Of a stretch of DNA of 64,000 bases, positions 27,401 through 54,630 are shown in pieces; the first letter of the stretch is position 1, and each line of letters begins with the position of its first letter. Made by a program: the position numbers and the translations under genes. Source of the stretch: Marsupella aquatica (lineage: Eukaryota; Plantae; Marchantiophyta); the NCBI GenBank assembly GCA_973895155.1, contig OZ316893.1, positions 25,347,520 to 25,411,519 of the forward strand. The letters are read 5' to 3'. The notes beneath the pieces were generated by a model, which was not told where the DNA came from, searched no databases, and saw only the letters and a program-made list of their open reading frames with translations.

Positions 27401-28144
27401 ATCAATAATTGCATAAGAAGACCGCTACTGTACATTATTTTTATGTTCGTGTAAATGTTGTCAGTACGTTATCTACTGGAAGGGTCCATTTTCGATGCTT
27501 TGCATTTGAAAAATAGGAAAGACTGGAAGCCTTTATAATTATGCTTCTTTTGTCCGTAAGATAGTACATTAGATCAGTTCACCGGACCGTCACTTATTTT
27601 CCAATTATTTCAGTGTAAAACATTGACATTTATGTGGAATCAGTATTAAATACGAATGTAACCAATGAAATGATAACAAGATTACAAGTATCTTCAATGT
27701 AAGCTCTGTTCACATTCTTCATTCAGCTGGAGCTTTTATGAAACCAATAAAAGAAGGGCTAGACTCTTTCTTGGGGTGGAAGGGAAGATCTGGGATATGA
27801 TATAATAATGCCCGTTGCCCGTACTTTTCCCTTTTTCTGACCGGGGAATCATCCAAGTAAAATACAATTTCGTAACAGTCTGAAATGGGAAATGGTAACA
27901 TCACTTTGTCAGCTCCAACTTTCGATATTTTGGTTTAAAGTAAAGTGACATTTCCTACAAGACTGGCTTGTCTCCTGACCATGTGTTTTGTTGTAGGGTT
28001 CCTACACTGTTGCCAGAGAATTAGACCAGTGTTATTTTTGTTATTTAAAGAGTTTCCCCCATCCTCGAAATCCTATCCAGGCGGTGCCCTACAATCATGG
28101 AGACGTGCATCTGTTGTCATAGTTAGTGGCTCATTTGTTGTTTC

Positions 28145-28474
28145 CTGGGCTAATTAATTAGGAGACCTTGGCACTTACTACCTTCCATTCCCAACTTGAT
28201 AGGCCTAATTAGTTAGGAGCCATCTGAACTTACTACCTTCCATTTTGACTTGCTAGGCTAAATAGTGAGGACCCCTTGGAGCCTGCTACCTTCCATTTCC
28301 AACTTTTTTTCTGATTTGTTAGAGCTAATTAGTAGGAACCCTCTTACTTCCATTTTTTTACTTGCTAGGGCTAATAGTCAGGAGCCCTTGGACCTCACTA
28401 CATTCAATTTTTGAGTTCCTAGGCAAAATAGCGAGGAGCCCTCAAAACTTACTACCATTGATATCCAACTTGTT
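28145..28474. repeat. Degenerate ~60-bp tandem repeat array, left part
   Basis: Recurrent ctaattagtaggagccct...acttactaccttccattt...acttgcta units. Confidence 0.85.
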
Positions 28475-28804
28475 TGTGACACGGGTAACGTGTCACTTAA
28501 CCAAACGCAGGTCCTAGATTAGGACTTATACGGTCATTAGGACCATAACCGTAACGTAGAATAGCACGAGTAGCCGTCTTTGCCATTATGAATAGATTAG
28601 GAGTAGGTTAGTTGACTGAATGATTACGAATTAAAGAAGGGGATTATTACGATCGACCGAGGTACGGTGGCGGCGGCGGAGTAAAAATCCGTTAGGAGAT
28701 CACGCTTGGACCGAGACGCCAACTTCAGCTCATTATCAATGACCAAAACGGCCTTGCCCTCTCACGCTCGAGCTCACCATGGCACCTCCATAAGAGCCGA
28801 GTCG

Positions 28805-29671
28805 ATGGCGCTGTGGCCCATTTGCTCATTTCTACCTTTCGAAATTCGCGGACGCTGCCAGTCACTCTTGCCTTTTGGTCACATCAAGCTACCTTTTACG
28901 AGGAACTTATCGAGGGTTAAGAGCGGATTGTGGAGGAATTTAGTCAGGGCGAGTAAGGCCGCCACCAGCAGACGGATTTGTCGGGCGGGAACGCGGACTC
29001 AACGAACCAGACCACGAAGGTTAGACGACCCTTATAGCCTTGGGATTTTGGACCTTGTTTGGTGAGGTAGCTGCTAAGTTCTCTGAGACTTACTAGTACT
29101 CTTGCCCCGAGAAAGCCGCTTACGAACGAAGATACGCGAAGTTGGTGGCCGAGGAAGCGCAGGTTAGTTGTGAGAAGACGACCATCACCAGAGATTCCAG
29201 TTACAATGAACTGCGGGATTACATCACCGAGCTATATATCAGCGAGGAGGGGTTTCGATCGGTAGCAGAGGTGATTCTTGAAGTCCCCGCGAAGTTCTTT
29301 AGGCTGAGGGGTAGCCAGAGACTGACTCCAATGGAGCTCGACAAGATTTCAGGATACATCGACCAGCAGATTGCAGCCGAGAAGCGCGAAGAAGACATCA
29401 GCAGACAACAGGAAGCGGCGCGTAATCTTACATTCCTCGGGGAAAGCTCGAACGCCTTCAAGTGGGATATGGCTACCCCGACACCACCCCCAGCCCCTCA
29501 GCCGATGACCACAGGCGTACCACCTAACCGGTCTCAAGTCCGACCCATGAATAACACCGAGTGTTCCTCAGGTTCCGAGCATGTTAGTCCGCAGCTTGAG
29601 CAACGCTCTTGAAAGCGGGCAAGGGCGACGCCGGCCCCTGGGCCGACAATGCGAACCAACGTCGCCCCTAC
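28805..29671 (+). pseudogene. 5' part of the element A ORF (homologue of the element B ORF)
   Basis: LWPICSF and GFWTLFGEVAAKFSETY*..EKAA align with element B WWLICEH and HFWGCLFERATEYIKTY..ERAA. Truncated by the CACAA insertion. Start position approximate. Confidence 0.6.
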
Positions 29672-30168
29672 CACAACTACATTTTTGCATTTCAGGACCA
29701 GGTTTAACCTAACCCAAGACGACGTTCCTTCCATTTACGATGGACTATACGTCGTTAAGCTCCGGACTGTTGTCGGATGTCGTTCGGAGTTCCGACGGGA
29801 TCGGATAATGTCAACTTGTGTGACGTTAACTTTACGTCCTTTAAGACACAGTAAGTTACCTCGTATATCACGTTGTACCTTACATTACGTCTTACTAGAC
29901 GTGGTAACTTACCTGTTCCCGGAAGACGTAAATGAGAACGATGTATAGGATGACATTCTTAAGTTTAGGCATTTGGAAGGACGTATCTTCAGATGCATCG
30001 TCATAGAATACCATATGTGCATCGGGAAAAATGACGTTAATTCCACATATCAGTGGAGGACAGATTGAACTATAGGCGGGAGGCTCACTATAGCCTACAT
30101 TCCCGAGTGAAGACATCAAAGGTCCTTAGTGTAGAGAAGTTGAACCGTGGGAGGCAAAGTGTTCAGCT

Positions 30169-30729
30169 ATGGTGCGAAAGTTCTTTGCAAATGTGCATTG
30201 TTGTTTCCTCCCGCTTGGTGAGGAGGAGAAGATGGTTCGAGGGTTCTTTGGCCGTGGAGGGCTTGTTGACAAGCTATGTACCTCACAGACCGATTTCTTG
30301 ATTGTAAATACGTGGAAACAGGTTGTGGAGCACTTCAGTGACTATGCTAGCTTGATCGAGCATTTCGCTGAAACCGTGCATTTCATCTCTACTCGGTGGG
30401 TAGAGTGCTCCATTCTTGCCAGCAAGCAGTTGGATCCAGGAGAGTTCTTCTTGCATCCGAGCAATGATCGTGGTCTAGAAGATTCGCCCGAGGATGATGA
30501 TGGTGAGGCCTACCCTCCCACCTTGTCTAAATGTGACCTGTCACCCACTGAACTTCAGATTGCTATGTTTGATTACAAGGAAAGTTGTGCAGCCAAGGTG
30601 GAGGCTCAGAGGCTACAGGCCGGTGAAGCTGTTGTGCGGAAGAATTGGAATGCCAGCCAAAGGCGTGCTTCGTACAAGAAGAGGAAAGCAGACGAGGAGT
30701 ACTACTGGTCTGATGAAGGGACTCCTTAA
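30169..30729 (+). CDS. BRCT-domain protein (186 aa) carried by the outer element, convergent with TnpD
   Basis: FFANVHCCF...FFGRGGLV...TDFLIV...VHFISTRWVECSILASKQLDPGEFFL fits the BRCT pattern (GG-x-V, T-x-F-L-I, W-V-x-x-S/C-I...L). Basic tail KKRK. Lies inside the TIRs. Confidence 0.75.
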   Translation: MVRKFFANVHCCFLPLGEEEKMVRGFFGRGGLVDKLCTSQTDFLIVNTWKQVVEHFSDYASLIEHFAETVHFISTRWVECSILASKQLDPGEFFLHPSNDRGLEDSPEDDDGEAYPPTLSKCDLSPTELQIAMFDYKESCAAKVEAQRLQAGEAVVRKNWNASQRRASYKKRKADEEYYWSDEGTP

Positions 30730-32253: not shown

Positions 32254-33008
32254 CACTACTACATATTGGCCCCTTTTGTGAAGCTTTTTTTTGACGCCGG
32301 GATGGTCTTGCGATGTCATCGACTTCAGATATTTTGTGATCAAACACGCATCACAATAAACCATGCTCACAGGTTCGCAACATGGTGTTGCGAAGCTAAA
32401 TACCTCGCAATTTGTTTGAGATCGGATTGAATTCGCAACTCTTTCAGATACTATTCGTCTCGCAAAGTATTTGTGGATCCGCGACCATCGCGACTGTATT
32501 TGGATCTCTTTTGTTTCATAATTTAGCGATAATAATGTACTCAAATATATATTGTGAACCTATTAGCTTCGCACAATATTGTGAAGCATAAATAGTCGCA
32601 AGTTACCGAATCCAGTTGATTCGCAAAGTTGAGAACACATTGACATCACAATTACCGATGGTGTGTTATTCACAAAGTGTTCAGAAGTTGCTTCTTGACA
32701 AGCTTGAAAATGTTTTGCAAAGAGAGTTGTTTGAAAATTTTGTAGAATGGAAATGTTTGAGAGAGTTTCTTTACAAGATGGAGAATGCATGTGTTTAGGT
32801 TACAGCTAGGGTTTTCAAAAAGGTGGCATGCATGAGGATAGCTTTGGAAATGGCTAAGGTTGCATATATAACAGTGAGATGAAATTTCAAAGTCCAATTA
32901 AGTGTTTGTAAAACAAAAGAAGAAAAGTAATATGTTAATATAAATAAAACCATGATAGTTAGTTTAGGGTCAAATTCTGGGCCCACAACAAGTTTTACTA
33001 CTAGTGCA

Positions 33009-36000
33009 TCAAACCTGGTCCTCATCCTCGCCTCCATTTGACACAATAATAACGTCAGGTTTTTCCGAGATAATGGAACGGGACCGTGGCACATACGGTA
33101 TAACAACTGACCACTCTAGGTCTGGTGGGTACGGAATATAGAAACACTGCTCAAGGTGACTTGGGAATGTAAATGGTTCAGATGTTTGCCAATGAGATGG
33201 TTGAAAGCTAGTTGCTGATGTCTTCAGTCGAGTAAACCCACACTCATCAAGAAATACCGTGCGATTATCACCAACCAGGTGAATTTTGAACCACTTACAC
33301 TTGAAGACATACTCTTCAAATTTGGAATCGGCATCATAGGATATGATCAAGATCTCCTCAATCTTCCCATAGTGAGGCACCACATCTCTGATCACATTAG
33401 TGTCATGACGGCTACTTTGTGAATCTTGCATGAACTGCCCTTGAACTCCACAATCAAAAGTTCTTCCCCTCTTCTCATCAAGGTCAGAAATCCTGAAATG
33501 CCTCCCTTGTGTCCACATTGCTGTTCTGGTTTGAACAAGTCTTAAAGGACCATGAACAATTGTTCGAACCTCAGGAGTCATATCTGGAAAATGTGATACA
33601 TTCTCACCTTGGGCCACCATAGCATCCAACTGAAGTACTTTCTCCTTCATATACTCAAGGAACTTTGGAAAGATCCTTGGGCGACGACTCTCCCTCTTTG
33701 CATCCTCATAAAACTCTCTCCAATCTTCCATCACATTGCTGTTACTCAACATGAAAGTACTAACCTGTGTCAACTCCACTGCGGTTAGTAAGCGTGTTTT
33801 TTTTGCACCTGTTAAACGGTCCTCCTCCACTTCCCTCTCTTCCATCCAAGTGCGTGGAAAACTAGGATCAATGGTAGCTAAGATGTTACTACAATAAAAC
33901 ATACTCTCAGCTGCCAAGTATCCAGTTGCCATGCTCCCCTCCACTCGTGCACGGTTCCGTACATAAGCCTTTAACACGGCCATATACCTTTCCAGCCAAT
34001 ACATCCACCTACAATGCACCGGACCGGCAATGGCAACCTCCCTCACAAGATGAACGAGAAGATGCACCTGACAATCAAAGAAGGAAGGAGGGAGGGCCTT
34101 CTCCAACTTGCATACCACCTCTGCTGCCAATACCTCCATCCGTGGTATCTCTTTTTCATATATTTCCTTTGAGCATATCCATCTCAACAAAGTGCCCAGT
34201 GACCAAAGGGCGTCTTGCACTTCTTCACTCCCCAAACCTATGATTGCCACAGGAAGTATATGTTGTAGTAAACAATGATAGTCATGTGTCTTGAGATACA
34301 TTGGCCATTTATGACTGTCCTCCATCCCAAAAGCCTTACGTAGATTGGCACCATAGCCTGTAGGAAACCGCATCTGCCCTATGCGTTGTCGAAACTCTCT
34401 TCTTTCACCAACACTCAAAACCCATGGAGCTGAAGGACGATGTTCCATCCCTGTGGATTCATCAACTGTTATCCATACATCTGGATGTCGTTCTAGATCC
34501 TGGCATGCCTCCCTAAAATTAATGTTCTTTTCCCCATAAAAGTGCTTGATCAAAGCCTTCCCAACATTTCCCTCTATATGCATGGGGTCTAACAAGTGAT
34601 GAATCTTCAACTCAGGCCAATAGGGCAAAGTGGCCAGTATACCCCACCTTGTCAATCCACTACCATCAAATCCCATGGCATCTTCAGGGTCTGCCACCCT
34701 ATCAGCTATGGACTTCCAATACGAAAATGTTGTGCGGTCAGGTATCTCACGCTCATCACCATTGATCATGTCAAAGTCTGAAAACAAAAGGGGGTCAGAC
34801 CTCATGTGATGCCCAAGTGGAAGAAACTTGGTATGACCAAGGTAGATTATCTTGTGCAGCCATTTTGAGTACTTGGCCATATCATGAAGGCTTGGACCAC
34901 AAGTGGAGCATGCCTTGTACCCTTGAGTTTGGAACCCAGAAACAAACCCAAACCCTGCTCACAAAATAACATTCTCAATTAGAGTCAAAGGAATTGAAAA
35001 GTTCATGTACATAGAATTAAAGAGGGACTTCCTTCCAAAAAAACTTGATCTCCAATACATGAAAAAAATACAAATCCATACCACTCACCTGGATAGTCAT
35101 GCATGGTCCACATAATGATTCCCTTCAATTGGAAGACACGTGGTAACCCTCCTGTAGTTGTCCGACCATCATATGCCCATACACCCCCCCATAATTTATG
35201 GAGTTCCCCAACCAAGAGCGCCAAGTAGATGTCCATGTTTTTTTACCTTAGATGGACCTGGGATAATCAATGATAGCAATAAGAATCCCTTTTTCATGGA
35301 CAACCATGGGGGAAGGTTGTAATTCATAACAACCACCGGCCAAACCGAAGTAGGGCGCCCTTTCCCTCCAAGGGAGTGTGGGCTTACCCCATCTGAGCCA
35401 ACCCCAACCTCACATGACGAGGGTCACGTGCAAATTCTGGCCATTGTGACTCCACATGCTTGTGAGCAGGGGAATCAACTGGCAACCGCATGACACCGGC
35501 CTCTGATCGATGTGTCTTATGCCATACCATCAATTCTGCCAAGTCAGAACATCGGTACATGTGCAACAATCAAGGAATAATAGGAAACCAACGAACAGCT
35601 TTTCTAGGCACCTTTGAGGTCAACATGTTGGTTTCATATCGAGGCTCTTGACAAATTGGACACTCAGTTGCGCTGGCATTGGTCTCATGATAGAGAATGC
35701 AGTCATTCACACAAGCATGAATGATATGGTATTCCATGCCAATGGATGATAGAACCCTCTTTGCCTCCTTCCAAGTTCTTGGCAACACATTTTCACTAGG
35801 TAACAAGAGATCATGGCAAATTGCAAACAAATCCGATAGTAGCGCATTGCTTGCCTTGTGTTTTGCCTGAAGATTCATCAATGCCAAGATGGCAGATAGT
35901 CTATTCAAACGAGCACCCCCATAAATAGGTGTTCTAGCATGTGCCTCAGCTTCTTCCCATTGTTTTTGTCCTTCAGGTGTACGTTGAGGCCTTGGATCAT

Positions 36001-36277
36001 GTGCAATATTTGGTGGAGGGTCTCCTTCATTGGGTGGGACACCTCCTTCACCACCAATGTCTACACCAAACCAATCTGTCATGAAGTAATCCATGGCTGA
36101 CTCTTGGTCTTGCATGACCTCATAATCTGTCCGAGGTGCCCCTTCATCTGGGCTGTCATTATCATTGTCACTTGATGAGGAATCTGCTGATGATGTTTCC
36201 CCGTCTTGTGGCAAGCCCATTTCTTGATATGTAGCTCTCAACCTCCTTGGCAACATATCTTGACTAGGCCGCACATT
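33009..36277 (-). pseudogene. TnpD/Tnp2 (Transposase_21 + DUF4218 + DUF4216-like) transposase of the inner CACTA
   Basis: Motifs HACVNDCILY..CPIC.EPRY, RWFPIIP, DSPAHKH..DPRHVRLGL, WTMHDYPG, LDPMHIEGNV, PPSFFDCQVHLLVHL..GPVHCRWMYWLER, FKCKWF. Nonsense TGA at 35570-35572, frameshifting near 35240-35390, intron ~35087-34956. Confidence 0.93.
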
Positions 36278-36427
36278 CTATAGAAAATACAATAAAGTAT
36301 TCACAATGAAATTAACGCCAAATATAGTAGTGCTCGAAACATATTATTAACAATATAAAAAGAACATGTCATTACAAAACATACGTTCACATACGATGAA
36401 CGTATAATACATGTCCCTAAAGTAATC

Positions 36428-37589
36428 CTAATCCCATTCATAATGTGTAAACAACTCCTCTCCAACCAGAATGGTCCTATTAGCTACAACTAGACAATGG
36501 TCATGATGATATCTCTGCCCATAAGGGGCTGGAGGGGGACCATCAACAAAAACCCATTCACAGTTTTTCCTACGCTTAGGCCGGGTCCCCACAGTACTGT
36601 TGATGAAACCGGCAATATTCCCACTACGGATGGGATCACCATCAATTATACGCTGGTCACAATACTTTCTGGTGCAACCATCAAAAGTATCCATGTCCAA
36701 TGCATAAGTCTTCCACTCAGGGTGTTGAACAAGGATCATGTTCCAATGTCTCCTCTTGTAAATGGGTCCACCATACGGGAACAACGTTGGTCCATCTGAA
36801 GAGCGCCCTGTTCCACCCATATCATCCACAATAATGTCCTGACAAGAGAAAATCCCATACCCATGCCTCTCCCCTAGGGTCAAACTCTTGACAACCCAAC
36901 GTCTTCCCCAAACTTCTATCTCATCACCATAGGTTATATCACATGGCAAACCAAGGCACTCCGGATTCCAATCCTTTATGATAGGAACACACTTCCCTGT
37001 GAAGGTACAAGGGCCCCATCTACCATCAACCCTACAAGTGTACTGATCCACTTCCCCTCTAGGCTGTCTTTCTGACTTTTTTTTCCCTCTTGTAACAATA
37101 CCGTCACCCTTAATTGTCCCAACACTACCTTGCCCTGCTGCCACTAAACGAAAAGCTTGTGAAAGTGCCGAGCCTATAGCATCTAGAACTCCTTGTGAGG
37201 GAACATAGGGTGTTGGTGTAGTGGGTGTAGGCCTACTGGATACCTATAGGAAGAAATGGAACCAAGTGAGTGTGATGAACCTCCCAAATTTTATTTTATG
37301 CTACCTAGCAAGATTTACAAAATAAAATGGAAATCACAGTAAGTTTACAACTCACCATACGGGATGAAGAAGCTCCCGGTGTAAGACCTCGATGTTGGCC
37401 ATATCGAGCAATGTGCTCCGCACATACATATGACTTTTGGACAACCATCCCCACACATTTTTTACAACCACAAAGTTGGCGTGGTGGACCACTAGGTCGA
37501 CGTACGGTTGGTTCAGGTTGAGGAGGAGGATGACTTTCTTCATCGGAAGAGGAATCTGATGTGGTGGAAGTTGTAGAGGATGAAGACAT
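36428..37589 (-). CDS. SET-domain protein with N-terminal CxCxxC..H (transposase-associated-like) exon, inner CACTA; apparently intact, ~349 aa
   Basis: Exon 37589-37356 (LCGCKKC...EHIARYG; donor ATG|gtgagt) joins in frame to exon 37243-36428 (acceptor cctatag|). SET motifs: HGYGIF, YGG, IDGDP..GNIAGFINS, ANRTILVGEELFTHYEW*. Confidence 0.85.
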
Positions 37590-38021
37590 CTGACAAGTAT
37601 AGCAATTGGAAGGCGATTAGTAAAAACTTCACCAAAACCATCATTGATAATCCCTACCTAAACATATTAAAAAGAATTGACAGAAAAATACCTTTATGAG
37701 ACCCGGGCTTAGCAATGCCTTGACAGATCTTGTGGCTCAAATTTCATGAACCAAATCTGGAAGGAGGGGAAAATCTGCCAATATACAATGAATTAAGCCA
37801 TGCCTTATGGTGAACCAGAAAAAAAGGATGATAGATTGTAACCCTCCATATTTACAGCAATGACTAGAAATGCATGAGAAAATGTTATACCTTTCAGATG
37901 CCCGGGCTCTTGCAAGGCATTATCATGCATTAGCCAAAACTTTAAAAAACATGGGGAAGTGCCCTACAACGCCAAAGAGTTTTCCTCTCCATGTTAATGA
38001 GATAGACAAATAAATATAAGT

Positions 38022-38850
38022 AACCCAAACCCTACCCTAAACCCAAACCATGAAATGAAACCCTTCATTAAAACCTAACCCAAATCCCTCAATCACCCTA
38101 AACCCTTACCCTTATCCTAACCAATACCCAAATCCCTCATTAAAAATTCAAACCTTTACCCTAAACCCAAACCCCTACCCTAAACCCAAACCATGAAATG
38201 AAACCCTTCATTAAAACCTAACCCAAATCCCTCAAGCACCCTAAACCCTTACCCTTATCCTAACCAATACCCAAATCCCTCATTAAAATTTCAAACCTTT
38301 ACCCTAAACCCAACCCAAATCCCCCAATTACATATAAAACTCTTACCCTATCTACACCTTACTTTACCTATATAGGCCAACCCCCACCCCTATAGTTATT
38401 CTAAACTTCACCCTAACCCCTAAATTGAGGCCCTTTTTTAAAACTTAGGCAAAAATTGTACCCCCTCAATTAGAACCAAATCCAACCCTATATCATGTTA
38501 CACCCCAACCCAAATACTTACATTAGAAACCCAACCCCTTTAAAAAAACCACAATTAAACCCCCCAACTAAAAACCAAACCCAATCCCTTTAAAAAACAA
38601 CCACAATTCAACCCCTCAACTAAAACCAAACCCAACCCCTGTAATTACTCACAACCTAATGCAAACCTCTACCTTGAACCCTAAGCCAAACCCATTAATT
38701 TAAACCCAACCCTTTTATTCCAACCTAACCCAAGTTTTAACCCCCTTAATTAAACCAAATACTCCTAGATTAAAACCAAATATAAACCTAACCTTTAATT
38801 AAACCCAAACCTTTGTTAACTTATATTCTAGTTATCCTTACAACCCAGAC
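38022..38850. repeat. Degenerate telomere-like (CCCTAAA/CCCAAA) tract including a 143-bp tandem duplication
   Basis: C/A-rich strand with many aaaccct/accctaa words. ccatgaaatgaaaccc occurs at 38048 and 38191 (period 143). Confidence 0.8.
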
Positions 38851-39310
38851 ATCCATTGACACCCCTTCCATGTTACCTTATGGGCACTTAACATACCTTA
38901 AATGTCGTTTGACAAACCTTAATAGCCGTTTGACACCCCAAAGTGTTTTCCAACCCTAAACCGATAAGACCTGCCTCGCAAATTATTTCACAAGTTAGAG
39001 AATATTTCTGCGAACCTACGACCTTCGCACTTGCTTCGCAAAAACAGAGGCCGAGAACAATTTTTTGGGTCTTCTGCGGGTTGCGATGGCTTTGCGAAGG
39101 GAATAGATTCGGAAGTGCCTCGCAAGTTGCGAGACTATTTGCGAGGGTGCGGGCTTCGCAGTTTCCCATGCATATGTCATCGCAAACCCGTTTTTGAACG
39201 GCGTAAACATCGGCGGGAGCTCGCATTCGGGCTCATTTCAGTTTTTGAGCGAGACGAGAAGGGCCGGGGCGCGCGCAACAGTACGAGGGAGACTGTGAGA
39301 GAGGGGAGCT

Positions 39311-41357
39311 ATGGCTACCGGTGAGGGGAGTGGAGGGCAAGGTGGTAGTGGTAGTGGTAGTGGCAATGGGGGAAATCCAGAGAAAGAGAAGAATGCTTGG
39401 GCAGACTTAGTGGCCCAACATCTCAGTGCTGCACAATTGGGAGAAGTGAATCTCAATTCTCCAGCAGGGCTTGCCTCTTTGAGTGCCATTCTTGGACAGG
39501 TTTTGCAAACTGGGATTGTAGCAGGACAAGCTACTAGAGAGGGGGAGGAGAGGGCCGCAGCTGAAGAGAAGGCTAGAGAGAAAAAAAGGAAGAGAGAGGA
39601 AAGAACTAAGTCGGGAGTTGCCTCTCCTCAAGCCCTAGAGAAGCAGAAGAGAAGAGAGGAGAGAGATTCAATTCGAAAACAGAGGGAGGAGCAACGTCAG
39701 AAAGAGGAAGCAAGAAAAAAACTTCCATTCATTGCCTTGGAGACAAGTGGGACTCCAACTGAGCTAGCATATGCAGGGGCTAAGAGCACAATCAAGCAGA
39801 TTATCACAAGCAATTTCTCACGAGGCATGCAGTGGGGGAAGATTGAGAAGGCAGAGCGAAAGAGGGTCATCAACCAAATCAAGGATGCATTTCGCAATGG
39901 GCCTGACATAGATGAGCAATGGTTGGCAGATAAGATTTCAAATTCTATGTCTCAAATGCGATACCATGACAGGATGAAGATTAGAGCCCACCTGAAAGAC
40001 TTGAGATCATACAGGAACTTGCGCAGACCCCTCCACTTCACCGAGGACATCTGGAATTCATTTTACAAGATTGAGGTGCAAATTAAGGCAGCTCACGAGT
40101 TGGAAGAGTGGAAGGGCAATCTAGATCGAGCCTTGAAAGCAAAGGAGGCCGGGAAGCTCCCCCCTGACCACGACCTGAAGCCACTTGAGCAGAAGGTAGC
40201 TGAGATGCAGAAGGTGGCCGACCAGGAGGGAAAGCCACCCAAGCGTTTCACAGATGCAGCCAAACGAGTGAAATCCACCCCCAATCCAGTCCACAAGTTG
40301 GGTCAAGGCGGGCTCCCCGGCCTCAAGTCACACTTTGTGAGTGCCTCTTGCTCCTCCCTAACCTCTCTATTCCTTTCAGAGTTGTGCAATGCAAGTGAAT
40401 GACATCCCCGAAGGTTCTTGTTGTTGTGCATGCTTGCTTGGTTACTAGTTTAGGGCAACTCTGACACTTAGAATTTCTGGCAAATTTTTAAAAACTCTCG
40501 GGAACACAGTTTGCGAAGGTGTTGCGATGCGTATTTGTTCGCAAACCCCTCACAAAGTCTATCATAGACTTTTTCCATTTCAATTTTCCGATGCCTTTGC
40601 GAACAAATGCGCATCGCAAACTCCATCGCAACGCCTTCGCAAAAAAAGGTGGTTTGCAAGTTGCTATGCTTATAGGTTCGCAAATTTGAATTTAAAATTT
40701 TTTTTGGGTCATGTTTAGTAGTTGAGGATTTAGGCGTCACTTGTGGCTATAGGGTATGCTTAAGGGCAAATTTAACCAATTTTAATTGGTTTTATGCATG
40801 GCAGTATCGGAGGTACAAAAGGAAGATATCAAAAAAGCATATTGAGGTGGCGATAGAGCATGGACGAAAGTACCTCTTTGCGATGGTAGATGCCGAGTTG
40901 GCTACTGTAAGTGTCTAAGTGTGAACCATATGATTAGCATGCGAACATTGTGAGTGACCCTTTATGTCTTGCGGAAACTAATGATATGTAATGGATGCAG
41001 GATTCGGATGAGCCTGAGGGGTCGGGTGCTGATGTGACCAGTAGTGATGACGATGAGGGGGCTACTCCTGGTACTAGTGGTGCTCGGGGGGGGAGTAGTC
41101 GTGAGGTAGGTTCTTCCCATCGTGGTAGTGGTGGTAGTCGTGTGTCATCAGCACACGTTGATGACCAGGGGGAGGAGGAGGACCCTGAGGATGAGGAGGA
41201 GGAGCAGGAGGGGCAGGAGGAGCCAGAGGAGCAGCAGGAGCAGGAGCAGGAGCACCGACGGCCATCACGCACCCGTCACCAAGAGGATCCCCGGAAGGAT
41301 AAGGGCAAGAAGCCAGCCAAGAAGCCAACCAAGAGGAGCCGCAAGAGCCCATTCTAG
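39311..41357 (+). CDS. Second (TnpA-like) gene of the inner CACTA, three predicted exons
   Basis: Exons 39311-40336 (..HKLGQGGLPGLKSHF|gtgagt), 40805-40906 and 41001-41357, with canonical GT/AG sites in phase 0. Helical W..-W..-RY core, HxLGxGG motif and acidic/basic tail are typical of the CACTA second ORF. The TnpA assignment rests on position and motif, not a database hit. Confidence 0.72.
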
Positions 41358-42145
41358 TTATTTTGTAGAGATACATGCATGAGAGTGACTTGTCATGCCG
41401 GAGCTTAGGGTAGGAAGAGGCAGCATAGGTTTAGAAGGGCGGACCTAGCATCAGATATTTCCCCCCTCTTGTCCATGTATAGGGTTCTTTGAAGCCCTAT
41501 CATTTTGTTCATGCTTTTCCATTTTATAAAACAACAATTTTGCCTTCCACATTGGGTTCCAAGGAAAACCCCTCGCAAATAATGTATTGAATCCTGTGTG
41601 ATCATAATTTTGCGAACCCTTTAAGAACTCATTCCCATCGCACAATATTAACCCCAAGGCGTCACACTTTTTGAGTCAATTAACTTCAGAACTTCAGATC
41701 CAAATATGTCGGGTTTTTGTGATACTTCTAGGATCGCACTTTCCTAATCGCAACCGTTCACAAACTTCTGAAATCACCGGTATCGCTCTTTGTCATACAA
41801 TCCCCATCAAAACAATTGAACCAGTATCAATCGCAAATATGATGCGATGGTAAATCCGTCTCAAATATTGACGCCCGCGCGGGACGTGTGCGTGTATGTT
41901 TGCGAACCTTATGCGACTTATAATGGATCGCAGAAGTATTGAATATTGCGAACCTCTCAGCTTCTCAGTTTGCCATGATGTTGCGATGCCGTTGCGATGG
42001 TCCGCGTGCGAAGTTATTAGGTTCGCAAAGTGCGAAGGGGGTGCGATGCGTGTATGTTCGCAATAGCCAGAATTATGAAAATCAGGGGCTTGTTAGTTGC
42101 GATGAGATTGTCTTCGCAAAACCGGCCGATAGTGTTGTAGTGCAA

Positions 42146-45120
42146 GCTGTGGGAGCTTGTGTGTCCAAACTCCCTATCACCCCGCTTGAGTAGAACAGGC
42201 ACTCCGACATAATATACCCTGTTGCCATACTTCCCTCTGGTCAAGCGGGTTGGTGCACGCAAGGCTTTAGCACTTTCATGAACCGCTCTACCCAATACAT
42301 CCACCGCGCATGCTCTGGACCAGCAATGGCTACCTCATCCACCAGATGACATAGCAAATGCAACTGCATGTCAAAAATACATGGGGGAAACACCTTCTCC
42401 ATATTGCACATAACACGGGCAGACCGTTCCCTCATCTCGGGAATCTCACTCTCCCTTATTTCCTTGGCGCATACCCACCTGTAAGGGGTACTCAAGATTT
42501 TGTCAAATTATTAGTATGATAAACATATGCAATGATCATATCATAAATATATGCCAACAAGACTATGCTAACCTGAAAATGGAGCACAACTCATATACTG
42601 TATGTCGGAGTAGGCGTCGCTCTCTAGAATCATCCTAACAACGCAAGACAGCAGGTAACACATGCTGAATCAACTTGTGATAATTGTGAGACTTCAAGCC
42701 GATTGGGGGTATGTGGTCTTCCCTTGTAGTGCACCCACGGAAGCCGGCTCCGTAATGGCTAGGGAATTTCATTTCACATATCATCCCGTTCATCTCCTTC
42801 AAAATCTGTTTTGGCAAAACCCAAGGAGCAGGTGGCTTCTCCCCATCTCGAGTTATCCAACAACTCTTGACCACTCCAACCTGCTTTGCATCCTCTCGGA
42901 CCCCACGAGTATCATTCATCCCATAAATGTGCTTCACCAGGTTCTTGGCAACATTTACTTCAATATGCATGGGGTCCAACAACCATCGGATGTGGAGCCT
43001 CTACAAGATGAAGAACCAGGTTGTGCTAGTGAGAAACTCATAAATAGAATACTACAAGTCACTAACTTAAAATAGGTCCAATCTGATTTTACTTACCCTC
43101 CAATAAGGCAAGTCCCACAAAGCTGAGCGACGATTGACACCACAGTGCTTAGGTTGAAGTAACTTTGCCTCCACTTTCTCCGCCATTTGAATTTGACCCT
43201 CAGCTGAAGGCCCATTGGGACATGGCCTAAACTCAGTCTCAGCCCAATGTGTGGTGCTATGTCGCAATATATCGTCCATTGGCAAACGAACCCTACTGCC
43301 TTCATGTGTGGTTTTGTGCAGACGTTTGGAGTATCTCCCATGCAACTCAGGACCACATGAAGGGCAAGCTGAATAACCGGCCACTTTCAAGCCAGATATT
43401 GTGCCCATACCTGTCAATGACATTTAAAACATTCAGGCCAAAATCCATTGTCACATGCAATAGAACCATGCACAATGTATATCTCAATTATTTCTATGAC
43501 TGAGAATTACCTGGACCATCCGTGGTGCAATGGGTGATCATTGCTCTCATATTAAATGTCCTCCCATTATCCGGTGTACGAGTCACATCTGTGGTCACTG
43601 CCCCAAACTCCCATAGGTTCTGCAACTCTTCATAAGCTGGAGCCAAACAAATGTCTGGATTTTTACAGGCCTGAGGACCCGGAATGATAGCAAGGAGGAG
43701 AACATGACCCTTCTTCATCACCAACCATGGAGGGATATTTTGATTGAGCAAAAGAACTGGCCATATGGACTTAGGCTTCCGTCGTTGCTTGTATGGGTTT
43801 ACCCCATCTATTGCTAACCCAAATCGAACGTTCCTTGGCTCCCTAGAAAAATGCGGCCAAGTGCTGTCGATGTGCTTCCATGCTGGACTATCGTGGTGAT
43901 ACCGCATAATCCCTGGTGGAGATTTGTTCTCAGCATGCCATGTTTGAAGTGCTGATAAATGTTTCCGTCGATAAAGATGCTGTAGTCGGGGTGTGATCGG
44001 GAAATACCTGAAGACTTGCCATAAACAGTGTTACAAGCATCACTTCGACGTTAAATCAAAGTTAATGTCGTCTCACAAGACATAAATATACCTGTACAAT
44101 GTAACATACGACGTAAAGTTTCTCAGCGATGTTAGTAACGTCGGCTACTTCAGTTTACGTCTTAATTAACGACGTAAATATATGTGTACCATGTAGTAGA
44201 CGACGTAAAAACTACAGGTGATTTGGAGACGTAAGTTACATCTTTAGAAAGGACGTACGTGTGCGTACATCAGAAATGACGAGGAAAATGGGCAAAACTA
44301 CGTTCTAACAAACGTAACACCGCCAGGAGGAGGAGGACATCACCTTCTCTGGGAACTTTTTGCCGATGGTATCCGGTCGGTACCGTGGAAGCTTACATTG
44401 TGCCTCTGGGCACTCTGTATGCTCAGAGTATGTCCCTCTGTACAGGATGCAACCACTTGGACACATGTGGATAGTCTCTAAAGCCAATCCAATTGAGGTT
44501 AACAACTTCTTAGCTTCCCTCACACACCGAGGGAGAGTGTTTGGTTGGGGCAAGAGTTTTTTGTGGAATAGTGCATCTGTATGGACGTTTGAAGTGTTGA
44601 AAACTCCCTGCAAATTCAACATCAACAAAGTGGCACCCAACCTACATTTGTGAAACCAGGGATTTGTATGCAATTTGTTTGAGGTATGACATTGGGTGTG
44701 GTAAGTAATGGTCGAAACATTGGGTGTGGTAAGTAATGGTCGACACATGATACTATTCAATCATGAGACTTACCGTGATGATGGAGAATCCAGGAAGAGT
44801 GGAGTTCTGGCTTCCATTTCCAACTGGTCCCAATCTTCCTGGTCTACTTCCATGGTAGGCCTCTCGCCCCGAGGTGCATGTGGTCCAAAGTGAACGTCCA
44901 CAAGGTGGGCAAAAGCTTCCTCTTCAAGAATGGGTGCATCCCCCTCATCTCCACTGTCCTCATCAAAGTCTCCATCATATGCATCATGGTACTCCTCATG
45001 GTCACTATCCCCCTCAACATCTTCCTCATCAGAAAAGTGCAGAGTGGCCCGTAGGTGAAAGTCACGCGCTGACATCGTCATCATGGATGGGTGAGGTGTA
45101 GGGGTAATGTATGCACCATC
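42146..45120 (-). pseudogene. TnpD/Tnp2 transposase of the outer element, 5' part (multi-exon, disrupted)
   Basis: Motifs HMCPSGCILY..ECP...PRY, DSPAWKHID..EPRNVRFGLAIDGVNPY, LDPMHIEVNV, FPPCIFDMQLHLLCHL..WMYWVERFM. Interrupted by introns, frameshifts and the inner CACTA. Confidence 0.92.
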
Positions 45121-45224
45121 CTACAATTGTTTAATACAATATTATAATCAAACAAATAATAAAATATGATTTAATGCAATATGCAACAATGGGTCCATAT
45201 ATTCTGAATGTATCATGTCCATCC

Positions 45225-46686
45225 TCAATGCCAATCATAATCTACAAAAATCTCTTCCCCTGCTCGAATGGTGCGGCTAGCATGGGTCAAGATGTAATGA
45301 GTACAAGCCTGTGGCAAACGAGGGTGGGTCTGGTCATGGTACTCGTGCCACTCAGCGTTTGGCCTAAAACCTAAATGCCGACAACCCACAGTGCTATTGA
45401 TGTAACCTGCCAAGTTTCCAGTGCGGGGTGGATAACCATCCATCTGAGCATACCTAGGCTCTAGCTTGACAGACATGCCATATCGACCAAAGGTCGGACA
45501 TTGTCGAGACAAGATGCGCCATCGCTGTGCAGAATACTTTGGCCCATAGAATGGAAAGAGCTGAGGCAAGTCCTCGGGCTGACAACCATCAGGGACCACA
45601 ATATCTACAAGTGCAAATAATCCTAATCCTACGTTGGGGCCCAATGTGGAGGGAAGGAGGACCCAAGGGCGGCCCCAGACTATGATAGGTTCCCTGATTG
45701 GAAGGTCCAATGGGAGCCCAAATTGGGTAGGAAATGAGTCCTTTATGATGTCCAAGGCTCTCCCACGTAACTCTCTCGGTTCCTGGGCACTAGATGCATC
45801 AAGAAAAGGGCAATGGGTTGGCCTCATCCTAGGTGGACGAGACTCCAACGACCGTGGTCTAGTACTGACCACTACTCCCCTCTCAATAGGGTGCACCCGT
45901 GCCACCCTCACCCTATCAAATACACGGTCTATTGCCCGTAAGGTGGCATCTAGTGCCGATGGGGGGACCAGTGCAGAGAGCGCTCGACGTGCAACCTCTC
46001 TCATGCGGTCCTTAGGGGGAGACCGTACAATAAGAATCTGTTCCACATGTATGCAACAAAATTTCAGAAAGCGAGAAACATGAACATTGCTCAAGAAGCC
46101 AACCTACCTCAAAATGGTTGTGCAAAAGGATAAAACTTACCTCTGGTGTCGGTGGAACATAACGACCGTGGATCCCTAAGTGGCTAACGATGGTAGTGCT
46201 CTCGTGAGATACAACGCCCTTGCATTGTCTACAAGGGCAAGGCATCTTGCGGACTGGTCCAATACCATGAAGAGCAACCATGGCCGCTCCAAACCCCTCC
46301 TCCACTGGCAAAGGTGAGCTGTATGCCTGGGGCTCATGTGATCGCCGGCGACGGTGTGACCGATGATGGTGGCTCCTCTCTCTCCTTCCGTCCTCATGAC
46401 TGGGACGGTGATGACGTCAAGATCCACTAGTCGTCCTCCGAGGCAATGACTCATGACCCCTGCTCTCTGGTGAATAATCCCTCCTCTGCAGCAAATAATC
46501 CCTCCTATCCAGTGAGTCATCCCTCCACCTATCCGGCGTATAGTCCCTCCTCCTAACCAGCGAATGATCCCTCCTCCTATCCGGCAAATAGTCTCTACCC
46601 CTATCACGATGCCGGTATCTGGAGCCAAGACTCGTATCCCCATCATCTCTCTCATCAGACAGAGAGTCTGATGCATAGATCACCAT
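45225..46686 (-). pseudogene. SET-domain protein with RD-rich and CPCRQC..H N-terminal exon, outer element; one in-frame TGA at 46417-46419
   Basis: Exon 46686-46141 (donor GAG|gtaagt) joins in frame to exon 46037-45225 (acceptor aacag|). SET motifs: VGLGLFA, FYGP, MDGYP..GNLAGYINS, PNAEW, ASRTIRAGEEIFVDYDW*. Clearly homologous to the inner SET ORF. Confidence 0.82.
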
Positions 46687-48299: not shown

Positions 48300-51200
48300 T
48301 GTGATGCCTAGACAGGAATCACTCGGCCAGTTAAGTGGGTAAAGCAGGAAGGCACCCTAGGAACACCTTAGTATAGGGACAAAACAAGGAAAATAAAAAC
48401 AATTAGGGGCAACCATGGAACCCGGGCCGAGGCTGGAGGTAAGGACGCTGAGGGTGAAAACTCGATTAGGGTTAGGGCGCGTTAAGCGTCGGCGGCTAGG
48501 AAGGATCAACGGGAAGAAGGACCGGCAGAGGAGAGGGGTAAGGAGCGCTTGCAGGAGATGGTGGCTCATTTGCGAGCACGAACTAGGCAGACGACTACGG
48601 GAGGCCAACTACTGTCAGCTGCTTAGGCAAGCACTCGGGGAGAGAGTAGATACCGACGATCGACCTAAGGAGGGTATGAGCAACGTCAATCAAGCGGCAC
48701 ATTTCTGGGGATGCCTGTTCGAACGGGCAACTGAGTACATCAAGACTTACGAGGACGAGGAATCAGAAAGGGCAGCTCGAGAATGGCAGGAGCTCGCTCG
48801 ATTGTGGGAGCTGCAGAAGACGGCTTTCTTAGGAGGCGAACTCATCAAGGACGAGTTCCTATGGACGCCTACTTCCAATCAACTCGACAATCTTCTGTTT
48901 TGCAAAGACAGCGTCGTCGGCATCCGAGAGGCCATCAAGAACTGCAACGACATACACTGGGAATTAAAGGGTAGCACGGAAAGGTGGACCCAGGCAACGG
49001 TGCTAGGAGAAACCTCCACGACAGCAGAGATGAAGAGGAAGGGAGCCGTCAACGATGAAGCCATCCCGGCAAAAAGAACGAGGTCGGCGGCACCAAAGAA
49101 GCCAGCCGAGCAGCAGAGCAGGAGGCAGGGAGAAGCCGAAGAGGAGGAGGTCGATCCCATCAAGGCCATTCCAACCAGGGATGACACCTGGAAGGGCTGG
49201 GCAGCAACCCTACCGGTGGAGGTGCAACTACATTTTGCACGGGAGGAGGATGCATGCTTTACGGCCATGCAGACCAAGAAGTACCAAGGCTTCATGGCCG
49301 GATCCGGCTTAGAGGCCTTTGTAAGATTACCATGGCTGAAGCCGGAGGTACCGGAGTCTGACCTATTAGAATTCGTGGGGTCATGGGAACCCGAGACCAA
49401 TTGCACGAGGATATATGGGAAGGATTTCTATCTTACTCCCAAGGTAATTGCCGAAGTGTTTGGCTTGCCGATAGGCAATAAGACCAAAGTTGATACCAGG
49501 AAGACCTTGCCTGACAAGGAGTTCCGGTCATTCCCCGGGCCATCAACGAAGAATGGCTTCTTCCGGAACACCTGCACCAACCCGCACATAGGAGAGATGA
49601 TCAACTTCTTGCGGGTGACCATGCATTGTAACTTGCCGAGGGCAGAGATCGGCAAGGCACAGGTCTATCTGGCAGAGAGGCCAGACCCAAGCCGGGACTA
49701 CAACGGGTACCTCCTCAACCAATTGAAGAAGATCTTAAAGGAGGAGCAGCAGGTAATCGGCATGGGGAGCGTGTCGCGGCTTGGCTATCACATGCCGCTG
49801 TTGTGCCGGTATGCCAGAGGTCAGATTTTTGCCCCAGTACTTCCCCTGCAGGTAAGGGCACCCAAGAAAGCTCCAACGCCGAGGCCGTTGGCTGAGAAGC
49901 CTCAACCACCTGTTAGCCCTACGATCAAGCAGGTGTTTAGACCCAGGAAGGAGGACTTGCCGATGCAGCAACCAGGCATGCAGAGTCTGCTGAAACTACT
50001 GGAGAAAGAAAAGAGATCGGCATCGGCAACAACAACGGCAACAGCAACAATGCAGGACACTACTACAGAGGTAGGCCTACACCGGCTCACAAGAGAAAAC
50101 CCCTTTGCTGGAGACAAGGAGAGAATCAGGCCGGAATCCAAGCCAGGTGTTCGAATGTATGTGGGAATCTCAAGCTCCGAATCTGAGGCAGAATTGCCTG
50201 AAGCTCCTACCGACGAAGAGGAGAGGGAGAAGTCGGACGTCCAAGAAGTAGAGGAGGCAGTGGAGGACTGCAGCCTTGATAATTCCGGCTATGGGTCGGA
50301 CCATCACATTCCAGGAGTAAGGACCTGTGGCCGGTTTGTCCCCACACTTCCAAGGGTAGTGCGAGGGGACCCCAACCAGCAGAGTAGCCCTGAGTCTCCC
50401 CCACCAGATGTTGCTCCCCCGAGCTTTGACGGCATAAAATAGACGGTGCAGGAATTTCAGGAGTGAATCAGGGAGGAAGAGGAGGCAGCCCTGGCTAGGG
50501 AAAAGGATTTACCAGGAGGAGATTGGCCGGAGGACATCAGGCGGCTAGCCGAAAAAGGAAGCAAACCTCTAGCCACGATTGAAGAGATCCGCAAGACGGC
50601 TTGGGAGCAGAGGCCGCGATGGGCGATGCCGATCACTTCTACTTACTCCACCTACGCTAAGAATAGAGCCATGGAGTATGGTGAGATGTGTGGGGAACTT
50701 GCACTCGGCATCTTTGGAGAGGAGTTGGAGGTAGGACCCTTTTTCCATAGGGAGCAGTTGGAGAAGCACCAATTAGAAGAAGCGGTGGCTTTAGAGAGAA
50801 GCAAGAAGGACGAGGTCATTCGGCGGCTTAGGAGGATGGAAGCCGAGATTGAAGATCTAAAGGCGGCCAAGAAAGCCCAAGATGAACTGCGGATTAAACG
50901 GCATGAGCTGAACATCATGCAGGGGCAGTTGGACACCGCGCAGGCTGATAATCAGAATATCAAGGATAAACTGACTCAGACGCAGGGAGAGTTGGCCGAC
51001 ACGATCAAAGAGAGGGAGAAGTGGAAGCGAGAGCTGAAGAATACAGAGGAGGCCCACATAACAGCCAACAGCCGGGCCATGGCGGAGACCCAAAGAAAGG
51101 AATGGGCGTTGAAGGGGGAGCTCGAGAAAATCCACGGAGCCCTTGAGCAGAAGGAGGCCGAGTTAGGGAATATCAAGGGATTATGGCGCTGCAGCAGGAG

Positions 51201-52969
51201 CTTGCATCCCTGACGGCCAGCTTCAAGGCCGACCTAAGGGAGAAGGACAAGATGCTCGAACAGATTTACGCCAAGATGAACCAGATGGAGTCTGTCATCA
51301 TTGCAGAGCTCGACAAGGAGCTAAGAGCAACCCGGGAGGAGAGGACTACCTTGAAACAAGAACGGGAGGAAGCCCAGAAGGAACTAGAGGAGGCGTGCAA
51401 GGACCTGGATGAGACCCAGGAGGAGTTGGAGGAAATCACGAGGAAGATGGAGAACCTCCAGCGGCGGGCCGACAACCAAACAGAGCGGCTGAAGAAACAA
51501 GCCGCAGTATTCAAGTGCTTGTCTTCATCAGGCCCAACTCCAATTGGGGCAACCAAGTTACCAGGAGTGGTACTGGCTGAAGAAAAAGCCGCGCCACCTG
51601 CACCAGTGCCGGAAGTAAGTGGGAAGGGGAAGGAACCAGCTGCCGAACCAGAAAAGAAGAAGAAGCCGAAACCTTCAGGGTCAAGGAGTAATCCGACTCC
51701 ACAAGCCGTGGTGGCCAAGGAGGTAGAACCAGCACCATCCTCCGGCATGAATACGGCAATAGATCCCGCTATCATCACAGATGGGGGTGGTGCGGCCCAA
51801 GCCGAACTACTCAGTAATGAGGCCGGTATCCCAGATCCGCCTCTTGAGCAGGCCGGGGAGACCGTAGCCGAGGCTGAGGCCGTAACCGATTCCCGAGCCG
51901 ATGCCGACGCCGATGCCGACGCCGATGGTGGACCCAGTCAGGCCGATGGAGAGTTGACTCAGTCAAGGGCAGGTAATCTGTCAGAGAATGAACCTACGGC
52001 AGTGGCTGAGGAGGAAGCATTGGGGGCGTCCATTAAGGATCCTCCACCGGTGTCATGATGGTGCAAGGGCGCCATTCCTTTTAGGGAGGGCGGACGTGGA
52101 GGGAGGAGGCGTGAGTGGGCAGGGCGGGCGCTGATCTCCAAGTTTAGGATTAGGATCAGGACCAGGAGCGACCCTGACACTTAGCTTAGTGGGATTGCGG
52201 TTCCACTGGTAGGAGCAACACTTGTGCTCCTGCCTTGCTGTACATAGGTAGATTCGGGCAAGTAGATTATTGTTAGGTAGATTAGGCTTACGATGCAAAG
52301 AATGGCGGATCCACTACCAGGATAAGTACCTGGGCAGCGGGGAGCTCAGGGCCTCTTCTTTAGCAAGTTTTTAGTTTGCACCAGCCGGGCTGGGATCAAG
52401 TAGTATGAGAAGCTCTCGGTTAGTCATACAGTGACCCTTGTGTATATTCATGTTTCCTCATGCCTAAGAGCTGAATAGAGTTGGCCTCACGGCTTAGTTC
52501 GTAGAGCTTGTGTATGAGATGTCCTGTTTGTATGGCAAGTGCATGGTATGACTCAGTCAGAATGAGTCATTTTGCTATTTGTGTGTCGCATTAACTTGTG
52601 TGAAGAGTGCCCACATCAACCAGAAGGAAGGAAAGTAAGCAGGGGAGTGAGAGTTGGATGTGTCGAGCTGAGAGAGGTCTTAGCGGCTTAACCAAGCCTA
52701 TTGGGGATCATTCCGGCGGCGGAATCCAAACATACCTAACAAGACGGAGGGGAAGACAGGGGAAGGCCTAGATTAGGCCGGCTACGTATCTCATGACCCG
52801 ATGAAGGATCTGTCCAGTATATATGTGTAAAATATTAATAGTAGTAGTAGAAGGTTAACAGCGTCCCATGCCGCTAAGCCGCGGAAACGGCCTCGCCAAG
52901 CGCGAAACCTGCGGGAATCGGCTTGAGCTGGGGGTTTCTTGGGTTTAGGGAGCCATGGGACGCACCACA
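48300..52969. mobile_element. Solo-LTR-like element B (4.67 kb, TG...CA ends, 5-bp TSD) inserted in the outer TnpA-like gene
   Basis: Ends TGTGATGC ... GCACCACA (7/8 inverted match). TSD GGGAG (48295-48299, 52970-52974). Removal restores NFGGQGGWGGFLATY followed by a gtaagt donor. No RT or integrase inside. Confidence 0.85.
48415..52058 (+). pseudogene. Long ORF of element B (~1200 codons originally): plant-TE accessory-ORF-like domain, Pro/acidic linker and coiled coil
   Basis: ORFs 48415-50442 and 50626-51213 are in one frame across two stops, followed by a frameshift into 51183-52058. Core GLEAFVRLPW..LLEFVGSW..IYGKDFYLTPKVIAEVFGLP. Heptad-rich E/K/L C-terminus. Confidence 0.75.
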
Positions 52970-54630
52970 GGGAGGATGGGGAGGATTTCTTGCAACCTAT
53001 GTAAGTGCAGTGACTCACTCTATACTCATTGAAGTCTGCATTCTGTGGTTGTGTGCTGCTGCGGTGAAATCCTGTGCTTTACGTCGTTTTTTAGTATTAA
53101 CGTCGTCTTGGCCGCACATTACCTTCCCTCTTACGATGTTTTCTTAGACGTACCTCACCTCTAACTACGTTAGCACTATATTAACGTCGTCCTGTCAACC
53201 TTAATACTATGGAGTCCCCCTGAACGTCTTAATGGACGACGTATGTATTAGTAATGTCGTATGATGATAGGTAAGTAACATCGCCCTGAACGACGTAACT
53301 TCCATTTGCTGCAGAAGCGGAAGTATGGCCAAGATGTCGAGCCAAGTGAGCATGAGCGGCTATACTCTAAGCGATATGGCCCGGCAGCCCTATGGGCAAA
53401 GCTTGACTCTGTTCCGGAAGACCACCCGGTAAGTGTGCTAGCTTGTTCAGTACCATTCCATAGACCTAGACTGAAACTATATCTTATGCAAACCTAGACT
53501 GAAATTGTATCTTGTGCACAGGTGGTTTAGTAGCACGACCCATTGAGGAGGATGAGGAGCCCAACACTGTAGCCCTGGAGGAGGGTACCCAAGAGGAGGA
53601 CCCAGTACCTTGCGGTCAGCAGGGCTCCACTTCTCGTGACCTTTTCCCTGCACTGGAGACTCATAGGGCCAGAGGACAAGGAAGGGAGAGACAGAGGGAG
53701 GAGGGAGATAGAGATAGAGAGAGGAGAAGGAGAAGTGGTGAGAGGCGGTCCACTAGGGTAACACGTAGCACCAGGCAGATAGTGCCAAAACCTAGAGGCA
53801 AGGCTCCACCCTCGGCTGCACCGGAACCAGAAGGCAGTAGCAGTGCCTCAGAGCAGGATGCCCAGTAGTATCAGTTGCGTTGGCGACGAGGCAGAGGATT
53901 GGGACGTGATAGGCCCCATTCTCAACGGCATTAGGTTGTAGGTATTTCAGTAGTAGGAGGTCCTCCATGCATTATGTACATATTTTTTGCCATTTTGATT
54001 CAGGCCACCCATTTGTGGTGGCACCTCATTCCGGGTTACAATATGTAAAAACACATGGTTATATTGTGTGTGAGCTGAACCCTAACAAGGACCCCACCCA
54101 GACAGTGCAATGTGTAATAGGATGTATGTACTCCCGTATACGTCCTCCTTTATACGACCTTTAACCACCACAGTACATCGTTGAGCCCTACATAAGCCAA
54201 CATACGTCGCACAACAAGAGCACGATACATCGTCCCCTACTATGTCAACTTACCCAAACGTCTCAAAAGAGGTCATAATATACCGGCCACGGACGACGCT
54301 AAAATAATACGATGTTTAGTGCATTGCACATTACAACGTACTAGACGTGGTTAATGTTTCATTACATAGCCTGACACGACGTTTATGGGTAAACTTACAC
54401 ACGAGCATTGGCCATATTTTACGTAGCCTAACACGTTGTAAAATCATATACCTCCTATTGTACGACGTTAAGAACAGTGTTCTGGACGTGATAAAGAGCG
54501 TCTCCCCAAACGTGGTAATTAACGTCGCTCTATTAACGTCGTGAATGAGGTCTTTCCTCCTCTGGCCATATACGTCGTGATTAACGTCTTCTAAAAGTCC
54601 GTTAATCAGACGTAAAATGTAGTTGTGTAC

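Follow-up and report, generated by a model that had tools for sequence, protein, structure and literature searches.

A SET exon within the transposase gene of two nested CACTA transposons of the liverwort Marsupella aquatica, with a predicted choice between two splice acceptors

We analysed a window of 64,000 nucleotides from Marsupella aquatica (contig OZ316893.1 of assembly GCA_973895155.1). Two nested CACTA transposons in this window, here called E1 and E2, each carry an exon for a SET domain within the transposase gene, and this arrangement is a real and conserved feature. The SET fold is that of lysine-methylating chromatin enzymes. In our estimate there is a probability of about 0.75 that one transcript of the E1/E2 type is spliced in two ways, the same first coding exon being joined either to the SET exon or to the transposase. 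We favour this two-acceptor reading, which rests on genomic sequence and predicted gene models, because E1 and E2 have three phase-0 splice sites in common and SET exons that are 33% identical and fall into separate clades.

Two nested elements and their genes

The boundaries of the two elements and the parts of their genes are as follows (positions are those of the window).

32254..42142, no strand: E1, a CACTA transposon inside the E2 transposase; ends CACTAC...GTAGTG, 3-bp target duplication CAA
29672..54627, no strand: E2, CACTA-type, defective, holding E1 and another insert; 14-bp inverted ends starting from CACAAC
37356..37589, minus: E1 first coding exon; Ser/acidic leader and CxCxxC...H...G module, phase-0 donor
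36428..37243, minus: E1 SET exon, 271 codons with terminal stop; PF00856 above cut-off
36278..36427, minus: E1 AT-rich spacer, 73% AT
35089..36277, minus: first exon of the TnpD-type transposase body in E1, opened by the phase-0 acceptor at 36277
33009..34954, minus: E1 transposase, last exon; PF13960 above cut-off, PF02992 and PF13952 below
39299..40402, plus: E1 divergent accessory frame in the TnpA position; no Pfam family
46141..46686, minus: E2 first coding exon, phase-0 donor; Arg/Asp-rich leader, then Cys/His module
45225..46037, minus: E2 SET exon; PF00856 above cut-off
44774..45120, minus: first exon of the transposase body in E2, opened by the phase-0 acceptor at 45120
42143..44641, continuing 32253 to 31380, minus: E2 transposase, further exons to the E1 insertion; PF02992
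47519..48304, plus: E2 divergent accessory frame

Both elements belong to the CACTA/EnSpm class by their ends, their subterminal repeats and their transposases. The terminal inverted repeats of E1 have CACTAC at both ends, while those of E2 start with CACAAC, a CAC...GTG variant, and form a perfect 14-bp repeat flanked by a 3-bp target site duplication (TAC). Motif-dense subterminal blocks are rich in TCGCA in E1 and, near both ends, in GACGT in E2. Each element encodes a TnpD-type transposase on the minus strand, matching PF13960 with 117 bits in E1 and PF02992 with 130 bits in E2; the two are 32-43% identical in three blocks. The accessory frames on the other strand lie head-to-head with the transposase genes and are similar to each other (E 3e-07), and a homolog of the E1 frame occupied the same head-to-head place in seven loci found in metagenomes. 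Neither frame matched any Pfam family, and both are no more than candidates for a TnpA-like protein. Between the two divergent genes of E1, positions 38000-38900 show a strong C/A skew, low complexity and a 143-nt tandem duplication.

Position 32250 was joined to 42143 in contigs of three public sequencing runs (X1, X2 and X5), with three letters fitting either side; because these contigs join exactly across E1, empty sites of E1 exist. E2 is a dead copy, since its transposase carries stops and the E1 insertion. From the ATG at 46686, the frame of its first coding exon extends over 182 codons; it contains one in-frame stop, near 46417, as well as an inner ATG at 46281. The present copy of E1 is also damaged, by a short shifted frame in the transposase (~35396 to 35238); in run X1, a contig of high depth has other letters at these two places and lacks the shift. 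Contigs of that run are 99% identical to E1, with a depth of 540-620 along the whole element. Depth is not copy number, but these contigs suggest that the E1 family is recent and present in many copies. The same run contained a high-depth joint, 35981>36470, which may stem from a copy with a deletion or from a sister family that has diverged.

Several further features of the window lie around the two elements. An insert of ~4.7 kb (~48305-53000, plus strand), with long coiled-coil-rich frames and no informative Pfam match, interrupts the divergent accessory gene of E2. E2 itself sits within another element, represented by long frames at ~28470-29670 and 54628-57020 and flanked by related arrays of ~55-nt repeats (28135-28475 and 57268-57925). 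In the left arm of E2, a 199-codon frame (30130-30729, plus strand) has a BRCT-like look and no Pfam match; atlas matches to BRCT clusters at 0.83-0.85 are a lead only, and if it holds E2 would have one more accessory gene. Finally, a 346-codon frame at 23303-24343 (minus strand), with no Pfam match beyond E 0.16, looks like a possible C-terminal end of a non-LTR retroelement.

Splice sites and their conservation

The layout common to E1 and E2 is an exon encoding a Cys/His module and ending at a phase-0 donor, a SET exon, an AT-rich spacer of 104-150 nt, and the transposase body. The SET exon and the transposase body are each opened by a phase-0 acceptor in both elements. In E1 the first coding exon runs from the ATG at 37589 to 37356 (234 nt) and ends at the phase-0 donor ATG/GTGAGT (the slash marks the junction). 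The SET acceptor, TAG/GTA at 37243, opens a frame of 271 codons that reaches its stop at 36428, and the transposase acceptor, TAG/AAT at 36277, opens a frame of 235 codons. The corresponding sites of E2 are GAG/GTAAGT at 46141 (phase 0), CAG/ATT at 46037 and TAG/GAT at 45120. In both elements, from the SET stop to a point 40-70 nt inside the transposase exon, no AG in phase 0 occurs other than the transposase acceptor, the stop codon of E1 itself excepted. Introns and spacers are 62-75% AT, as against 48-55% for exons.

A preliminary description of this stretch had placed all of these splice sites correctly, each being present and in phase 0 in both elements, and the CxCxxC...H...G pattern that it reported was also found in both. 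What it called exon 1 holds as the first coding exon; however, an acceptor-like AG precedes it in E1 and in E2, so a non-coding leader exon is likely and the Cys/His exon is probably not the first of the transcript. The LRAT motif that it noted near the start of both transposase exons is there, but at different offsets (residue 13 versus 23). The wider motif formed by E1 and its relatives is not matched by E2, and we have dropped LRAT as a weak argument.

On the two-acceptor reading, a promoter in the central spacer would drive one pre-mRNA. Use of the near acceptor, removing an intron of 112 nt in E1 or 103 nt in E2, together with a transcript 3' end formed within the AT-rich spacer, would give a module-SET protein (349 amino acids in E1). 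Use of the far acceptor, skipping 1078 nt in E1 or 1020 nt in E2, would instead give a normal TnpD with an N-terminal Cys/His module, at the place where flowering-plant TnpDs carry PF13963. The E1 spacer would then serve both as the 3' end of the SET transcript and as the branch and acceptor region of the long intron. The form with the short intron, encoding SET, would probably be made by default, and the transposase form less often.

The preliminary description had named conservation of the splice sites in other copies as a check, and for the E1 family this was borne out. A scan of metagenomes yielded 33 loci; almost all belong to one family, with proteins that match Sphagnum-named entries and are ~60% identical to E1, so that they amount to about one independent comparison, and locus L006 provides a second for the donor and the SET acceptor. 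The donor GT was in phase 0 in all 17 loci holding exon 1, and 21 of 23 loci had the SET acceptor in frame. For the transposase acceptor, 19 of 21 loci had AG/AAT at an unchanged codon position, and two had lost the AG. The introns had diverged: when three loci were compared with E1, alignment of intron and spacer gave z 1.4-3.3, whereas the exon-1 core, the SET end and the first 60 transposase bases gave z 12-34. Aligned to relatives, the E1 spacer scored z 1.4-2.9, against 12-14 for the next 60 nt. The ratio dN/dS was 0.21-0.24 for exon 1 (over 47 codons), 0.13 for the core of the SET exon and 0.07-0.10 for the transposase; each of these three coding parts is thus under selection, which for the SET exon is purifying. 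For other copies of E2, contigs of runs X2 and X3 align either side of 46067-46133, a single joint within the intron, with 93 other letters between.

In an unrooted (in effect) SET tree of 42 rows, E1 and E2 lie in separate clades with support of 100/100 and 100/98. Each of these clades has a Calypogeia member, and the layout is therefore likely to be older than the split between E1 and E2. Among named organisms, Calypogeia fissa (66%) and Sphagnum species hold the closest relatives of the SET exon, and in the E1 clade SET proteins of the liverwort Calypogeia and of peat mosses lie close together (P0001, P0003). Between E1 and the Sphagnum-like loci, most segments show a synonymous distance of ~0.9-1.8. 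Horizontal transfer among bog bryophytes is possible, to judge from these comparisons.

Gene models bear differently on the two joins. Of 45 close matches to exon 1, 25 continue into a Val codon at the donor, which is what a GT donor would produce. Sixteen of the 45 are gene models of Sphagnum or Calypogeia in which this donor is spliced to the SET frame (P0208, which enters another frame, is left out of this count). The join of exon 1 to SET is well supported. No model among 70 matches to exon 1 joined it directly to the transposase, although predictors would not be expected to skip an intact 800-nt frame. The claim that one exon 1 serves two acceptors is partly supported: it agrees with the conserved sites of the E1 family and the coding signature ahead of the transposase Met described below, and is not matched by any model, among the 70, joining exon 1 straight to the transposase; we regard that second join as a strong inference.

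Conservation of the transposase peptide begins at its acceptor, seven codons ahead of the first Met. In the comparison of three loci with E1, the 21 bases before this Met gave z 5.0-5.7. The peptide that they encode reads N-V-R-P-S-Q-D on one side of the comparison and N-I-R-P-S-E-D on the other, the changes being a two-base switch between Ser codons (AGT/TCT), one silent Asp change and two conservative replacements; dN/dS over these seven codons was 0.87, which is uninformative for so few codons. In Riccia gene models the start of the exon is recognisable as P-x-x-[DE]-M-[LY]-P-R-R, a pattern drawn after the fact on the same sequences and not matched by E2. The Met was replaced by Ala or Gln in seven of the 12 Riccia sorocarpa models matching this motif, the next Met lying 19-76 residues further on. 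These 12 are predicted models compared at the protein level, and the species name was looked up except for P0141. The Met at position 8 was kept in E1, in 20/20 loci compared and in one Riccia family. Because conservation starts before the Met, and because the Met appears to be replaced in the Riccia models, the transposase likely needs exon 1.

The transposase body of E1 and E2 has no Cys/His module unless exon 1 supplies one. PF13963 was present at the N-terminus in 12 of 14 flowering-plant-type TnpD matches, which came from a weak search of long proteins with the transposase exon and included no bryophyte-named full-length transposase. The preliminary description had likened exon 1 to this family, and both elements did match PF13963, but at 15.4 (E1) and 20.5 bits (E2), below the cut-off of 27.7. 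A profile of exon 1 aligned to TnpD residues 32-62 with E 6e-04 and a probability of 28%, and the Cys/His motif residues vary little or not at all. Prediction, without an alignment, of a complex of two exon-1 modules with zinc gave no answer (score 0.00).

Two other ways of expressing the transposase have to be weighed against the two-acceptor reading. A donor inside the SET exon would produce a fusion of the module, part of SET and the transposase, as some gene models draw: Sphagnum model P0027 runs from exon 1 through the SET frame into the transposase, and seven Riccia models reach the transposase only via 109-373 residues of SET-frame sequence. The donors used in the Riccia models vary from copy to copy, however, and the gene set to which they belong integrates ab initio with transcript predictions, according to the accessible part of its description (PMC11735767). 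A scan with a rough matrix revealed no phase-0 donor scoring at least 3 within the SET exon or spacer of E1, E2 and five loci. A weak donor would escape such a matrix, on which even the exon-1 donor of E1 scores only 3.6, near the threshold, but taken together we think this kind of fusion improbable.

SET and transposase might instead be tandem genes, the transposase having its own promoter in the SET exon or the spacer and starting at the Met eight codons in. That would fit the retention of this Met in E1 and the 20 loci, and there is precedent in Arabidopsis, where, from what could be read of PMC13547354, EN/SPM families have shifted between a spliced layout and a split, head-to-tail one. 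Yet the spacer is merely 104-150 nt, conservation starts at the AG rather than at the Met, and more than half of the matching Riccia models have replaced the Met. A transposase begun there would also be without the N-terminal module found in most TnpD matches. We consider tandem genes very improbable, slightly more so than the fusion.

The SET protein

Returning to the two-acceptor reading, the module-SET protein that it predicts would end directly after the terminal Tyr of the SET domain. Matches to PF00856 scored 24.5 bits in E1 and 24.2 in E2, against a cut-off of 22.4. A structure model built from 77 sequences reached pLDDT 91 (36 when built from 14 sequences) and matched solved SET domains with a best Z of 12.4 and an rmsd of 2.5 over 124-133 aligned residues, so that we assign the predicted SET fold with confidence. 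No class of enzyme stood out: Z was 12.4 for PRC2 and COMPASS, 11.8 for SET8 and 11.6 for SET7/9, and EZH2, Set1, SET8, SET7/9 and NSD2 lay within ~1 Z of one another. Because the classes score alike, the substrate is not readable from the fold matches. A profile search with SET returned 141 clusters at 50% identity; 20 were looked up, eight being from Riccia sorocarpa, one from Calypogeia and one from Ginkgo, the rest having no organism. The Ginkgo biloba protein (P0163) is a distant member of the family (E 3.5e-07), and because of it relatives may reach seed plants.

The canonical motifs for binding of SAM and for catalysis in SET domains are GxG, YxG, NH and a terminal Tyr. When residues were assigned by these canonical positions, three features were kept in 91-97% of rows: GxG in 69/72 of 73-74, the Asn in 70 of 77 and, in 67 of 70, the terminal Tyr. 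The NH motif was NS, with Ser in place of His, in 73 of 77 rows, and the Tyr of motif II was Phe in 19 of 77, including E2 and its clade. Because GxG, the Asn and the terminal Tyr are kept, methyltransferase activity is likely on the basis of sequence and model, despite the Ser at the usual His position and the Phe that replaces the motif-II Tyr in the E2 clade. The protein would then likely methylate lysine, either on histones at the element or on a protein of the element, and the shared module might target both the SET protein and the transposase to the same place.

The two changed motifs would also fit splicing as we propose it with a different role for SET, namely that the protein has no catalytic function and acts as a lysine reader or a scaffold, or that the SET isoform mainly serves to divert transcripts from the transposase. 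The retention of the other motifs argues against this, as does the dN/dS of 0.13, and the solved SET chain ranked first by sequence lacks the same His. We regard such a non-catalytic role as rather unlikely.

Relation to known systems

In maize En/Spm and in Arabidopsis EN/SPM3 and EN/SPM7, TnpD and TnpA arise from one gene by alternative splicing (the available portions of PMC13547354 and 10.64898/2026.08.24.746577). E1 and E2 are similar, as CACTA elements with a single transcription unit from which, by prediction, either the transposase or another protein is made. Unlike in those elements as they are described there, the second protein has a SET fold and is not TnpA, the common piece is a coding exon with a Cys/His module, and the opposite strand bears an additional accessory frame in head-to-head orientation. 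A SET domain also occurs in Plavaka PAG2 of red algae, in the EnSpm superfamily (10.1101/2025.02.11.637652). The likeness of that element is drawn from its description; its SET belongs to a separate accessory gene and is fused to an N6-adenine methylase domain, and an exon shared with the transposase is not described in the portion available. DNA transposons with captured SET genes further include HarbingerS and MuDR families of Phytophthora (cited in the part seen of PMC12730594) and SET-carrying Helitrons (cited in that of 10.1101/2025.02.11.637652), which differ from E1 and E2 in superfamily and host. Like VANC of VANDAL elements and the TnpA anti-silencing factors, the SET product would be a transposon protein acting on the chromatin of its own element; those factors, as far as their accounts were accessible, are sequence-specific DNA-binding proteins that cause hypomethylation, whereas the E1/E2 product would be a writer enzyme.

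An account of CACTA transposase introns, in the accessible part of PMC4158355, covers flowering plants only. A literature search that covered open papers and the main texts of preprints revealed no description of a CACTA transposase gene with an internal SET exon. SET-carrying transposons and the alternative splicing of En/Spm are each known, and their combination appears to be new within the literature searched.

A wider picture can be offered tentatively, and we hold it to be doubtful as a whole. A bryophyte-wide CACTA lineage may have lent the N-terminal module of its transposase to a captured histone methyltransferase through the choice of alternative last exons. The module would bring the enzyme to the element or the transpososome, the element would write its own histone mark, and the choice of splice site would balance the writing of chromatin against jumping.

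If the proposal is true, E1 and E2 would be plant transposons that encode a chromatin writer and not an anti-silencer that binds DNA, and annotation would call for care, since numerous gene models of Sphagnum, Calypogeia and Riccia labelled "SET domain" would be parts of transposons. In that case, insertion into a transposase intron, with borrowing of its first exon, would be a route by which a captured enzyme is recruited. The poorly understood PF13963 module would also gain a role open to experiment, and some mosses and liverworts of the lineages concerned are tractable in the laboratory.
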